Below are positions 4,893-25,130 of a DNA stretch of 25,130 bases, in pieces; within the stretch, counting starts at the first letter, position 1, and every line of letters starts with the position of its first letter. The notes under the pieces were generated by a model, which made no database searches, had not been told where the DNA came from, and was given only the letters and a program-made list of their open reading frames with translations. The stretch is from assembly GCA_043822065.1 (NCBI GenBank), contig JBDRCC010000008.1, positions 1 through 25,130 on the forward strand, given 5' to 3'. This DNA is from an archaeon. Its GTDB lineage: Archaea > Undinarchaeota > CAZHTU01 > JBDRCC01. The position numbers and the translations under genes were made by a program.

Positions 4893-4918
4893 GTTTTTTT
4901 GTATCAGCTTAAGCTGAC
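4893..4918 (-). repeat. Truncated copy of the tRNA-associated hairpin repeat
   Basis: GTCAGCTTAAGCTGATACAAAAAAAC shares TCAGCTT..AAGCTGATRCAAA with the insert at 18365-18425 but lacks the central loop. Starts 2 nt after tRNA-Ala. Confidence 0.5.
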
Positions 4919-4919
4919 A

Positions 4920-5020
4920 TGGACCCGCCGAGATTTGAACTCGGGGCCTCTACCAGTCAGGAGCCCGATTTTACCCGGGCTGTGCCAGGGTAGCGCTCTA
5001 CCAGACTGAGCTACGGGCCC
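4920..5020 (-). tRNA. tRNA-Ala(GGC) with a 27-nt intron at 37/38 (4956-4982)
   Basis: Cloverleaf with acceptor GGGCCCG/CGGGTCC (G3:U70), loop CT-GGC-A[intron]T and T-loop TTCAAAT. The intron forms a BHB-like junction with one U-U mismatch. CCA is not encoded. Confidence 0.95.
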
Positions 5021-5037
5021 ATGATTGATGCTGGTTT

Positions 5038-15470: not shown

Positions 15471-15480
15471 TAAAATAAGG

Positions 15481-15572
15481 GGCCGAAGCCGAGATTTGAA
15501 CTCGGGGCGGGGGATTTCTGCAACTATTGGTTGCCACAGTCCCCCATGTTACCAGGCTACACCACTTCGGCC
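15481..15572 (-). tRNA. tRNA-His(GTG) with encoded G-1 and an 18-nt intron at 37/38 (15516-15533)
   Basis: Acceptor GCCGAAG/CTTCGGC, C73, loop CT-GTG-G[intron]A. CTGT/GCAG central helix with two 3-nt bulges. Confidence 0.95.
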
Positions 15573-15574
15573 AT

Positions 15575-15656
15575 TTGTTCGACCTAATGACTGCCCCGCG
15601 ACCTTTCTTGGTCCAGCTTCTTTTTAAAGAAGGTGGGGCTACACCACTTCGGCCAT
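15575..15656 (-). repeat. 62-nt hairpin insert plus 20-bp duplicate of the tRNA-His 5' end
   Basis: ggctacaccacttcggccat is identical at 15555-15574 and 15637-15656. The insert begins CCACCTTCTTTAAAAAGAAGCTGGACCAAGAAA. Confidence 0.85.
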
Positions 15657-18285: not shown

Positions 18286-18289
18286 ATAG

Positions 18290-18363
18290 CGCGCCTGGGC
18301 GGATTTGAACCGCCGACCGTCCGGTTAACAGCCGGGTACTCTACCAGTCTGAGCTACAGGCGC
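18290..18363 (-). tRNA. tRNA-Asn(GTT)
   Basis: Acceptor GCGCCTG/CAGGCGC, loop CT-GTT-AA, G73. Only 4 nt upstream of tRNA-Glu. Confidence 0.96.
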
Positions 18364-18364
18364 A

Positions 18365-18441
18365 GCTTTACAGTCCTTTGCGTTTCCCGTATTCTTTGCA
18401 TCAGCTTTCTTTATAAGAAAGCTGACTGAGCTACAGGCGCA
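18365..18441 (-). repeat. 61-nt hairpin insert plus 16-bp duplicate of the tRNA-Asn 5' end
   Basis: ctgagctacaggcgca is identical at 18349-18364 and 18426-18441. The insert begins TCAGCTTTCTTATAAAGAAAGCTGATGCAAAGAA. Confidence 0.85.
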
Positions 18442-18510
18442 TTTTTGCAGCTCTTTGCATACGCAAAGCTGTGCAGAGTAGATATGCTCGTTTTCTTATA
18501 AACTTATCCG

Positions 18511-22028: not shown

Positions 22029-24689
22029 CTATCTCTGCCTTGAAAAAATGTAAAATCCTACTAGGGGAATGACCAAAACCGCAGCCAAAATCACTGCCCA
22101 GCTGCTCATTTTAGCCCCCATTTCGGCGGCCGCCAGCTCCTGCTGGGCTGCAGCTTCTGGGTCGATTTCCATCCGCCTTGTAGCAATCTCCACCCCGTCT
22201 GCTTCCACCTTGACCGCCAGCGGGTCTCCTGGGTACTCGTAAATGGTCGCCTCCCCCCTCTGGTTGGTAGTTGCCCGTATCACCGCGCCGGTGGATGTTA
22301 TGAGCGCGACTTCGATGTTTTCGACCGGACTCCCGAACCTGTCCGTGACCGTGATCACAATCGGCGGCCTTCCGCTCCCCGTAGCCGTTGCGTACCTTAT
22401 GTTTATGCCTGCTGCGTTAATCTCGACGCTTGGCGCCGAGGATGTCGTCATCGGCGGACCCCCCGAATCAACGGTCTCCTCCGGTTGCTCTACTGCCGGC
22501 GCAACAACTTTCTTAGTGATTATCTGCGGTGTGATGAATTCCGTTGGTGCGGCGCATGCCGAGTCGTCGAGATAGGTTTCTCCCGAGTCACAGTACCCGT
22601 CGCCGGAATACGTTGAAGTCGCCCTGCAAACCGAGTGGACGCAGTACCTCTCACAGTCCGAGTCGTCCGAGCATGGGCTTAGGTTATACGAGATGTCGAG
22701 CAGGCTCAAAACCAGCCTGCCTGCGCTTCCCGAGCTTACGTTGATGTAGACTGCATCACAGTACCCATCTGAGTCCGAATCCGTGCAGTTTGAAGCTATC
22801 TGCGTCAGAGCCGAAGTGAAATCTACTGCCGGGGGCAGGATAGTGTAGTTTAGCTCCCCAGTGTAGTTAACATCAATACTGCCATCATTGCCAACATCTA
22901 TGCCAATGTTCCGTGGATAGCTGTCAGGCATGCCTGTGTAATTATAGGATAGCAGGCGCAATTTGTAGTATAACCCGTCGGTTTCCCCTGCCACTATAAA
23001 CGCCTTTATGTTTCCATCCTCAAACGAGCTGACTGCAGAGATCCCTATTGACTCATTGGCAAACGCAGGGTAGGTGCGGTTCTCAAGGAAGAAGCCCCCG
23101 TTCGTGTAGTTCAGCACCGCTGCGTGCATCACATTGCCGCCAAGCTCCCCGCCATACCCAGCGGCGAAAAGCTTTGTATTCCCATTTAAAACATAAGTAT
23201 CTACGGAAAATAAGTTGTCGTAGCTCGCTGCAGTCAGGTCAACTATGGTGTAGTTCTCAAGGGTCACGGCCCCTCCTGAATAATTGAAGGCGGCAAGGAA
23301 CGAATTGGTGCCAGGCTTGGTCCCGTCTGACAGGGTGCCTGCCACAAATAGCTTTACCACTCCGCCGCTTTCCCTCTGGGTGATGGAATACGGAATGTCT
23401 TGGACATCCAGGTCGTAATAGTCAACACTCTCCTCGTAAAGATGGCAGTCCGTATAGTTGTAAACTGACAAGTAGGTATCATCCGCAGTGCAGTCAGATT
23501 GTGAAACTACGAAGACCTTGGTCCCTGTTTCCCCAACATAAGTCGCGTGTGACGCTGGGTAGTCGTTGCTCCCGCCGCCGTCGCAGAGGTCCCTGAATGT
23601 TATGTTTTCCCTGTACAGCATGCCGTCTGTGTAATTATAAACTGCGAGGAAGACATCCGCCCCGGTGTCTGCATTGTCTGCCGACCCGGATACAAAAACC
23701 TTAAGGCTGCCGTCGACAATGACTGCAGATACGTCCTTTGCGTAGTCAGTCGAGTAATTGTAGTCCTCGAACGTGTAATTCTCGACGTACAGCCGCCCGC
23801 CAGTGTAGTTGAGAGCTATAACTGTGATATCATCACCCGTCTCAGTATGGGTGATTTGCCCTGCGGCGAAGACCCTTACTATGCCGCCCACCTCTATGGC
23901 GTCAACAGCATTCCCGTAGTCATCCACATCAGGAGATCCCTGAACTGTGAAGTTCTCAATATAGGTATTTCCGCCTGTGTAGTTCAGGACTCCAACAATA
24001 GCGTCCAATGAGCTTGTTGAATTAATTAAATTATTCCCGTAGCCGGTTACAAAAATCTTCGTGTTCCCGCCCACGTTCAGCAGTTTGCTTCTCTGCCCAT
24101 CCGTCCCTACCTTCCAGACGTCGTTTGCCGTGCGGTTCATCTCCTCCAGCTGCCCTTCCCCTCCAATGCCGACTGAAAAGCCATAAAGGCTGAGTTTAGC
24201 GGAAACAACGCTCGCAAGGCTGCGCACCTTTAGGTATGTCGAGGCGTCAGTCCCGGCTGCCGTGAAGTCTATCTCATAGAACGTGTTGTTGCTATCTGCG
24301 AACGGGTCCTGGGACCACCAGCCGTCATTGCACCAGTACGTGCCTGTCTTTGCGTCAGCATAATCCCTAGTGAACAAGCCGTAAGCCCGGTTTACCAGTA
24401 TGTTCGCGCTGCTGTGCACCGGGCAGGTGTATGAGTCGTTTACGCAGTACTGGTAGCCCTGCAGGTCATATCTGCACGCGCCACTGCCGCAGTCGCTTGT
24501 GAAATTGCAGCTCTCAAGGCGCCAGACTGGCAATGTTACTGGGCCAGGCGGGGCAGCCATGCCGCTCGGGCCTGCAAATTCAACCCCAGGGATTAAAACT
24601 ACCGCCAATCCCAATAAAATAACTAAGGATGCAAATATTAGTGTGAAACTAATCCTCTCAAACATCATCTTCCTTCCAGCATCTGCCAT
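22029..24689 (-). CDS. Large cell-surface glycoprotein with beta-propeller-like repeats and a C-terminal membrane anchor
   Basis: 886 aa. N-terminal hydrophobic signal, about 7 repeats of hhhhNYTxGxxxxENxT, Cys-rich motifs, Ig-like C-terminal domain, TM helix plus basic tail. BRE/TATA AAAAGGTTTTTATA at about 24715-24728. Confidence 0.85.
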   Translation of the reverse strand: MADAGRKMMFERISFTLIFASLVILLGLAVVLIPGVEFAGPSGMAAPPGPVTLPVWRLESCNFTSDCGSGACRYDLQGYQYCVNDSYTCPVHSSANILVNRAYGLFTRDYADAKTGTYWCNDGWWSQDPFADSNNTFYEIDFTAAGTDASTYLKVRSLASVVSAKLSLYGFSVGIGGEGQLEEMNRTANDVWKVGTDGQRSKLLNVGGNTKIFVTGYGNNLINSTSSLDAIVGVLNYTGGNTYIENFTVQGSPDVDDYGNAVDAIEVGGIVRVFAAGQITHTETGDDITVIALNYTGGRLYVENYTFEDYNYSTDYAKDVSAVIVDGSLKVFVSGSADNADTGADVFLAVYNYTDGMLYRENITFRDLCDGGGSNDYPASHATYVGETGTKVFVVSQSDCTADDTYLSVYNYTDCHLYEESVDYYDLDVQDIPYSITQRESGGVVKLFVAGTLSDGTKPGTNSFLAAFNYSGGAVTLENYTIVDLTAASYDNLFSVDTYVLNGNTKLFAAGYGGELGGNVMHAAVLNYTNGGFFLENRTYPAFANESIGISAVSSFEDGNIKAFIVAGETDGLYYKLRLLSYNYTGMPDSYPRNIGIDVGNDGSIDVNYTGELNYTILPPAVDFTSALTQIASNCTDSDSDGYCDAVYINVSSGSAGRLVLSLLDISYNLSPCSDDSDCERYCVHSVCRATSTYSGDGYCDSGETYLDDSACAAPTEFITPQIITKKVVAPAVEQPEETVDSGGPPMTTSSAPSVEINAAGINIRYATATGSGRPPIVITVTDRFGSPVENIEVALITSTGAVIRATTNQRGEATIYEYPGDPLAVKVEADGVEIATRRMEIDPEAAAQQELAAAEMGAKMSSWAVILAAVLVIPLVGFYIFSRQR

Positions 24690-24733: not shown

Positions 24734-25130
24734 TTATCTCTTCTTTGAAAATACGTAGAATCCTATTGCAGGTATTAGCAAAATCACTACGATAAGCACG
24801 GTCCAGCTCCCCATCCGTTGGCTGACTTCCGCCGCCCTGATGCCCTCCGCAGCCGCCTCTTCTGGCGTCGAAACCCTCTGGGTGGCTATCTCCACCCCGC
24901 CAGCTTCGACCTTTACCGACAGCGGGTCTCCCGGGTACTCGTAAACCGTCGCCTCACCGAACTTGTTTGTTGATGCCCGTATCACAGCCCCAGTCGAGGT
25001 TATGAGTGCGACTTCGACGTTCTCAAGAGGCTCGCCCTTCGTGTTCGTTACGCTCATTATCACTTCTCCTCTCGAGCCTATCTTAACCGTAAGCACTACG
25101 CCCGTGTCTTTAAGGGCTTGCGACGTCCAG
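24734..25130 (-). CDS. C-terminal part of a paralogous surface protein (5' end outside the window)
   Basis: Frame is open to the window edge. ENVEVALITSTGAVIRASTNKFGEATVYEYPGDPL is nearly identical to the C-terminus of 22029-24689. Confidence 0.85.
   Translation of the reverse strand, partial: WTSQALKDTGVVLTVKIGSRGEVIMSVTNTKGEPLENVEVALITSTGAVIRASTNKFGEATVYEYPGDPLSVKVEAGGVEIATQRVSTPEEAAAEGIRAAEVSQRMGSWTVLIVVILLIPAIGFYVFSKKR

Follow-up and report, generated by a model that had tools for sequence, protein, structure and literature searches.

A dispersed three-arm repeat and the duplicated start of an archaeal tRNA-Asn gene: a probable insertion

The tRNA-Asn locus

The window, a 25,130-nucleotide stretch of DNA, belongs to an archaeal genome assembled to 1.03 Mb in 22 contigs (82% complete) and carries a 16S-tRNA-23S operon and several tRNA genes. 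Among the latter is an intact tRNA-Asn(GTT) gene on the minus strand (18289-18363), called by ARAGORN and scoring 65.7 bits with the Rfam tRNA model. A tRNA-Glu gene lies just downstream of it, and the genes for topoisomerase VI A and B lie upstream. Read along the tRNA strand, the locus runs from a TATA-like word (18502-18495) through ~37 nt into a 33-nt block (18458-18426), a structured core (18425-18391), 9 nt of unique sequence, and a second 33-nt block that leads directly into the intact tRNA-Asn.

The first-pass annotation had described an exact 16-bp copy of the tRNA start, ending at G15, ahead of a 61-nt insert, and the coordinates confirm both. On the plus strand, 18349-18364 is an exact copy of 18426-18441, comprising tRNA nucleotides 1-15 (to G15) and one leader base, at a spacing of 77 and with an insert of 61 nt (18365-18425). 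The repeat is, however, longer than had been noted. A repeat search of the window extends it to 33 nt at 85% identity (18349-18381 versus 18426-18458; repeat score 18), so about 18 nt of leader are duplicated too. The gene-proximal copy on the minus strand joins tRNA nucleotides 1-15 (18349-18363) to an 18-nt leader (18364-18381); the distal copy, on the same strand, joins an orphan tRNA-Asn 5' fragment, again nucleotides 1-15 (18426-18440), to its own leader (18441-18458). All 15 tRNA bases are identical in fragment and gene, and the 18 leader bases differ at 5. Small as these numbers are, the conserved orphan bases could mean that the fragment is under constraint.

The element core (18391-18425, minus strand) rests on matches to two models, R1 and R2, and on its fold. 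It consists of a hairpin (18401-18425), a 3-nt linker, and a third, purine arm (18392-18397). The insert begins with this hairpin, a perfect 11-bp stem closed by a 3-nt loop, which folded as DNA reaches -10.6 kcal/mol (z = -6.2) and is equalled by none of 200 shuffles. The third arm is an exact parallel complement of the first and starts 8 nt past the second. A unique 9-nt stretch, hereafter called the tail (18382-18390, minus strand), leads from the third arm to the repeat. The 61 nt between the exact repeats hold no open reading frame.

Upstream of the duplicated block, the TATA-like word at 18495-18502 (minus strand) is present in the sequence, as had been noted. It stands 3' of the topoisomerase VI A stop codon and is a candidate for the original tRNA promoter; its distance to the orphan fragment is greater than the usual tRNA promoter distance. 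In the interval between this word and the fragment, 18441-18471 (minus strand) resembles by eye an older, decayed copy of this element type. We rejected this candidate, which scores 9.7 bits with R2 (E 2.2, not significant; fold z -1.95).

A dispersed repeat family

The hairpin module is not confined to tRNA-Asn: the first pattern searches found it dispersed all over the genome. We curated 26 copies in the 1.03 Mb, which fall into three sub-types differing in pyrimidine tract and outer stem. R1, a covariance model, was built from seven His-type copies with the Asn copy left out, and R2 from four Asn-type copies elsewhere with the window left out. R1 recovers the Asn copy in a genome-wide search (26.3 bits, E 5e-4) and R2 recovers it in a search of the window (52.4 bits, E 2e-9).

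A sister locus in the window has the same design. Ahead of tRNA-His lies a His-type core (15603-15636, minus strand), which scores 56.6 bits with R1 as a training member and 21.8 bits (E 0.006) with R2. It is preceded by an orphan tRNA-His 5' fragment (15637-15656, minus strand) that a repeat search identified as an exact 20-nt copy of 15555-15574, at a repeat spacing of 82 and with an insert of 62 nt. The intact, intron-containing gene occupies 15479-15572 (minus strand), with G-1 at 15572 (ARAGORN and sequence reading). ARAGORN calls this tRNA Thr(TGT) or Tyr(GTA), and it is absent from the Rfam gathering list. With its G-1, GTG anticodon, 18-nt intron at 37/38 and C73 it reads as tRNA-His, the identity that the first-pass annotation had given it. 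A second tRNA-His is present on contig 6. The window also holds a short Asn-type copy without a flanking repeat (4894-4917, minus strand; R2 27.0 bits, E 4.7e-4), directly 3' of the tRNA-Ala in the 16S-23S spacer. That spacer tRNA-Ala (4919-5021) contains an intron, and the shortened element adjoins its 3' end.

The suspected kinship of the His and Asn inserts is thereby borne out. The two are homologous over their first ~35 nt, and models from which the tested copy was left out recover Asn (5e-4; 2e-9) and His (0.006). The likeness goes well beyond that of shuffled AT-rich hairpins; a covariance model of the kind the first-pass annotation had proposed, built without Asn, still finds Asn, and further cases exist in related genomes, 17 of the 151 sampled relatives among them. 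Pairing in the stem is conserved across the family: over 46 distinct copies from many genomes, in an alignment fitted to a model that favours pairing, 99.3% of stem cells are paired and 7 of 10 stem pairs have changed on both sides. None of 500 shuffles reaches as high a value, and no slid register, a control that preserves the relatedness of the copies, comes close.

The element follows a constant plan. A pyrimidine arm and its complementary purine arm enclose a loop; after a short linker comes another purine arm, the third, which mirrors the second. Because of this symmetry, a single strand could form a hairpin onto which its third arm folds back, a predicted triplex-type structure. We compared two readings of the third arm, as the parallel complement of arm 1 (that is, the mirror of arm 2) and as a direct repeat of arm 2. 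The comparison covered 17 short-loop hairpins whose pyrimidine tract is asymmetric. In 14 of them an exact parallel-complement arm follows 8-17 nt past the stem; six tract variants are represented among the 14, and the direct-repeat reading leaves at least one mismatch in every one of them. The other three show 2-3 mismatches and may not be family members. For the Asn copy, the parallel complement fits with no mismatch at offset 8 and the direct repeat with one. A mirror repeat cannot arise by templated copying and so points to selection for a fold, a predicted triplex on either strand, in which the third arm lies on the duplex.

Beyond this genome, R1 finds the element in 9 of 17 genomes of the phylum (E<=1e-3) and, at E<=1e-4, in 17 of 151 sampled archaeal relatives, ten of which lie outside the phylum, all with small genomes. 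The nearest sampled relative carries it too, including a 91% copy of the Asn type. In genome G001 (contig 175, 738-772), a 91% Asn-type copy apparently stands in frame at the end of an open reading frame, before the next start codon (sequence reading). A strict pattern search also turned up three viral contigs with element-like copies that score 43-46 bits with the family model. One viral copy is directly 3' of a tRNA-Ser and two are upstream of a ParB-N/DNA-methylase gene; one of the two ParB-methylase contigs also carries a terminase gene.

Flanking duplications at gene ends

Direct repeats of 14-41 nt with a score of at least 14 flank 16 of the 26 curated copies. Chance is excluded as their source, since such scores occur at only 6 of 1500 random genome sites and 4 of the 41 tRNA genes called by ARAGORN carry an exact copy of at least 15 nt of their own 5' end 69-82 nt upstream. 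These four are Pro-TGG and Tyr-GTA on contig 7 and His and Asn in the window; tRNA-Arg(TCG) has an exact copy of its 3' end after the gene. Each locus has a repeat of its own, which matches whichever gene end is local: the 5' end at Pro, Tyr, His and Asn, the 3' end at two tRNA-Arg genes, and the 3' end at nine protein genes. Their length is 14-41 nt here and 10-51 nt in other genomes, and they enclose inserts of 35-113 nt.

The arrangement has a strict polarity. Read in the orientation of the element, the orphan copy invariably comes first, the hairpin and third arm follow, and a unique tail (0-42 nt) leads to the intact gene end. In 13 of the 14 tRNA-linked cases, which come from the source genome and five others, ARAGORN places an intact tRNA overlapping the repeat on the tail side; the fourteenth reads likewise by eye, and in none does the tRNA lie on the hairpin side. 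In 10 of 13 cases no more than 3 nt separate the outer edge of the repeat from the tRNA end as called; the remaining three are Asn (+18) and two tandem or nested arrangements (+24, +25). The inner edge falls after tRNA nucleotide 15-20, in the D-loop, when the 5' end is duplicated, and 12-20 nt from the 3' end, in the T-loop, when the 3' end is duplicated. The nine protein genes turn their 3' ends toward the tail; the stop codon of seven is at most 2 nt from the repeat edge, and that of the other two lies within the tail or element.

We considered whether transcription sets this orientation, as it might if the reverse strand were a terminator that is harmless only behind genes. By crude codon-usage gene calls, 14 of the 26 copies have their tail-side neighbour on the opposite strand and 12 have it on the same strand, a mixture on which we rejected the idea. 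We likewise rejected the view of the tails as a diverged outer duplication: in two pairs with close cores (His and a contig 2 copy; Pro and a contig 20 copy), the tails are unrelated and differ in length.

Other genomes widen the range of settings, with repeats at gene 5' ends that include the start codon, elements directly 3' of a tRNA without a repeat, copies within canonical tRNA introns, and a tandem double unit. In genome G007 (contig 35, 46288-46408), the 3' end of one tRNA is preceded by two tandem units of fragment, element and tail, an arrangement that unequal exchange between flanking repeats might have produced.

Judged by its sequence, then, the Asn insert is one copy of a dispersed non-coding repeat rather than a tRNA-specific cassette. 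The first-pass annotation had seen in it a constant-hairpin cassette targeted to tRNA genes by structure or position. Targeting by position over sequence agrees with the wider survey; specificity for tRNA genes does not, with copies also at the ends and starts of protein genes and in tRNA introns. A random staggered cut followed by survival of the gene should put the gene terminus anywhere in the duplicated block and the element in both orientations, which is not what is observed. Placement would instead call for either a cut aimed at the AT-rich gene boundary, or copying of the gene end as far as a physical terminus, followed by a template switch that joins the new copy to the element and leaves the tail as filler.

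Probable insertion and its rivals

We consider it probable that the tRNA-Asn locus arose by insertion of the dispersed three-arm element with duplication of its target. A small, non-coding three-arm repeat has spread through this and other small (DPANN-type) archaeal genomes, and one copy would have entered tRNA-Asn in the D-loop, after G15. Its insertion would have duplicated a 33-bp target of 18 bp of leader and tRNA nucleotides 1-15. The upstream 15-nt piece would then be the orphaned original start of the gene, still behind its original upstream region. The downstream repeat copy completes the gene, so the tRNA survives. The gene is presumably read from the old promoter through fragment and element, and RNase P would remove the resulting leader of ~110 nt. 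RNase P RNA is present in the genome (131 bits).

Several observations fit insertion with target duplication. The orphan copies sit in their original context: upstream of tRNA-Pro, a TATA-like word stands ~30 nt from the orphan fragment (sequence reading), and at one convergent gene pair the stop codon of the neighbour overlaps the orphan copy. A putative unoccupied site is seen in the nearest sampled relative, a member of the same order, where 59 nt separate the topoisomerase VI A stop codon from a tRNA start and neither hairpin nor fragment is present; this relative is distant, and its contig ends 21 nt into the tRNA. A metagenome scan with the topoisomerase VI A protein gave five loci at 47-49% identity, none with a tRNA nearby and hence no orthologous filled or empty site. 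By sequence reading, several flanking repeats match at 100% over 20-24 nt and few bases distinguish the cores that are most alike, and the insertions therefore look recent. The Asn insert may not be harmless: in the predicted minimum-energy fold of the precursor (18289-18460, minus strand) the 3' strand of the acceptor stem pairs with the orphan fragment and not with the true 5' end, and the fragment could thus compete during tRNA folding.

The first-pass annotation had offered two functional readings of the insert, as a new promoter and as stored, spacer-like sequence. For the former, the A/T-rich centre of the hairpin would serve as a new TATA box, or the hairpin as a control element, for the displaced tRNA. 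The loop region does read TATA-like, and the hairpins are centred on such a word as had been claimed; its distance from the intact tRNA is not the 46-48 nt given but 49.5 nt at Asn and 52.5-54.5 nt at His. Both values lie outside the main cluster of 20 other tRNA genes, in which the nearest TATA-like word is at a median of 31 nt and 14 of 20 fall at 24.5-36.5 nt. The same T-arm/A-arm centre recurs in copies that lie behind genes, at gene 3' ends or within tRNA introns. As a by-product of any T-arm/A-arm hairpin it lends the promoter idea no support; the mixed orientation to neighbours (14 opposite and 12 same of 26) speaks against that idea, and a promoter role does not account for the duplication of gene ends. 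Somewhat in its favour are two of the three viral contigs with copies, where the element precedes a ParB-methylase gene, and tRNA-Glu(TTC) on contig 7, where the third arm is followed by a TATA-like word at the usual tRNA distance. We judge a leader or promoter cassette improbable. At that tRNA-Glu locus (contig 7, 2270-2427), the third arm of the upstream element may double as a purine-rich promoter part. The storage reading, with the hairpin as a CRISPR-like repeat and the ~28-nt variable part as a captured spacer, draws on a constant hairpin joined to a variable stretch of spacer-like length, and we give it almost no credence. No Cas1 and no array were found in the genome, and the Asn variable part is mostly a copy of the local leader: duplicated leader, identical at 13 of 18 positions, plus 9 unique nt. 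The search of the variable segments that the annotation had suggested found nothing beyond chance, with chance-level matches in the genome and no exact match among viral contigs, exact matching being a weak test. Searched as one 27-nt stretch (18364-18390), the Asn tail and the leader beside it likewise match nothing else in the genome significantly and no viral contig exactly.

Two further rivals concern the orphan fragment itself. It could be the scar of an attachment site: a kilobase integrative element would have recombined into the tRNA near its 5' end and then lost all but 61 nt by deletion. Integrated elements are described as leaving a partial tRNA copy beside a complete gene (PMC9897764), an archaeal tRNA-Thr gene with a 5' fragment 1.8 kb ahead of it is on record (PMC3293823), and the genome encodes one tyrosine recombinase. 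The Asn repeat also has the att-like property of running from inside the tRNA to its terminus, and 18 nt beyond. Against this, the same ~35-nt core lies between the repeats of at least 16 different local targets, in inserts of 35-113 nt; independent deletions would not each leave one core, and a site-specific integrase has one target. No integrase is found at or near the Asn locus and no recombinase gene between the repeats, and we hold such a scar to be very unlikely. Less likely still is a D-loop intron, in which the orphan fragment would be exon 1 and the element together with the second copy of nucleotides 1-15 would be spliced out. Family members do sit within canonical tRNA introns of other genomes, and the minimum-energy precursor fold uses the orphan fragment as the 5' strand of the acceptor stem. 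Archaeal tRNA introns are marked by a bulge-helix-bulge at the exon borders, two 3-nt bulges with a 4-bp helix between them. The minimum-energy fold, the one fold considered, contains none; the intact tRNA downstream makes splicing unnecessary, and the same layout recurs at the ends of protein genes.

Insertion with target duplication raises the matter of the enzyme. Searches of the genome for Cas1, RVT_1, Y1_Tnp, a TnpB-type family, DDE_Tnp_1 and rve found no match; for Cas1 (PF01867), control genomes did give matches. At 82% completeness, this absence of a transposase partner falls short of proof. The only tyrosine recombinase gene is Xer-like. RVT_1 occurs in 1 of 17 element-positive genomes and in 9 of 134 others; canonical reverse transcriptases thus do not accompany the element, and we rejected them as the mobiliser. 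Nor does the element have the usual marks of a MITE: it lacks terminal inverted repeats at both ends, its sole inverted repeat being the hairpin at one end with the variable tail at the other, and its target duplication is neither short nor fixed in length (14-41 nt here, 10-51 nt elsewhere).

One rival is an origin free of any transposase. A copy of the gene end would be synthesised up to the end of the gene's own transcript or the edge of an R-loop, or from a nick at the AT-rich gene boundary. A template switch would then join this copy to an element template, and the unique tail would be filler. As an alternative to insertion we find this unlikely. The outer repeat edge at the gene terminus, a strict polarity despite mixed orientation to transcription, the unique tails of 0-42 nt and the lack of any transposase among the families searched would all suit it. 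So would a CCA at the junction in both tRNA-Arg genes with 3' copies and in one tRNA gene of G001, where the orphans lack CCA. Yet that sign appears in only 3 of 9 tRNA 3' cases, and since ~13 of 41 tRNA genes encode CCA anyway we set it aside as too weak a mark of an RNA template. RVT_1 shows no co-occurrence with the element (1 of 17 versus 9 of 134), mRNA ends are not expected at stop codons, and the Asn repeat extends 18 nt past the mature 5' end. The version with a host polymerase is similarly doubtful: it would copy the gene end to its terminus, at the transcript end or R-loop edge, and switch template onto the hairpin, whose triplex-prone fold would stall and recruit replication or repair. 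The element would spread with no transposase of its own and would leave a polar duplication of gene ends anchored at the terminus. The two tRNA-Arg genes with CCA at the element junction are on contig 1 (28567-28643 and 37395-37504), and the orphan 3' fragments of both are followed by a T-rich stretch, as in a usual tRNA trailer.

Relation to known mobile repeats

MITEs, REP/REPIN sequences, Rickettsia palindromic elements and Correia elements are tiny, non-coding, multi-copy and hairpin-forming, and MITE-like repeats are mostly intergenic or at gene ends, with insertions tolerated inside some genes. The archaeal element differs from MITEs in having no terminal inverted repeats that span it, no short fixed duplication, and no partner transposase that we could find. 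Casposon and CRISPR spacer integration is Cas1-mediated, with a target duplication longer than is usual for transposons, and casposons often sit at tRNA 3' ends. The element departs from these as well, with no Cas1, no terminal inverted repeats, no array, and a duplication of 10-51 bp that is not fixed.

Closest in structure are the bacterial intrastrand-triplex repeats PIT, BoxC and TMECO, described as short, dispersed, non-coding and three-armed, with one strand able to form a hairpin plus a third strand (Holder et al. 2015, PMC4666352) and associated there with raised variability of the surrounding genomic context. Compared by description only, they and the Asn element share three arms on one strand and mirror symmetry between two of them. 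Duplication of gene ends is not reported for them, the words "duplication", "direct repeat" and "tRNA" being absent from the text of PMC4666352. The archaeal element is set at tRNA D- and T-loops and at gene termini, an unrelated setting. Closest in their duplications are certain bacterial restriction-modification units, for which one account gives long, variable target duplications (46 bp and more) without a mobility gene, and repeats that in some units overlap a gene 3' end by 2-15 bp (Furuta et al. 2010, PMC2853133). As portrayed there, these carry kilobase cargo, in contrast to a multi-copy hairpin element in inserts of 35-113 nt with 10-51-bp duplications and strict polarity. Archaeal tRNA integrative elements resemble the Asn locus in their partial tRNA copy and in a repeat that ends at the tRNA terminus (PMC3293823, PMC9897764). 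In these two accounts, however, they span 1.8-23 kb, encode a recombinase and have one target, as opposed to 61 nt here and many unrelated targets.

A literature search that reached few subscription journals returned no description of such an element. In the literature found, a triplex-type three-arm fold, terminus-anchored duplications of variable length and the lack of a recognisable enzyme are not reported together.

Small repeats are among the few things still moving in the tiny, streamlined genomes of symbiotic archaea, and tRNA and protein genes can survive such insertions because each one rebuilds the gene end. The family accounts for orphan tRNA fragments, and for unusual tRNA calls, in genomes of this kind. 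If insertion is driven by the host, gene ends would be duplicated and long tRNA leaders produced by a new route, from which tRNA introns and split genes might perhaps arise as well. The transposase-free template-switching reading, if true, would add a new way for DNA to move in reduced archaeal genomes.

Genome G087 (0.6 Mb, outside the phylum) has 24 matches to the element, many of them as inverted pairs ~45 nt apart. Separately, the window holds a 170-nt direct repeat (22180-22349 and 24882-25051) with its two copies 2.7 kb apart at 77% identity.
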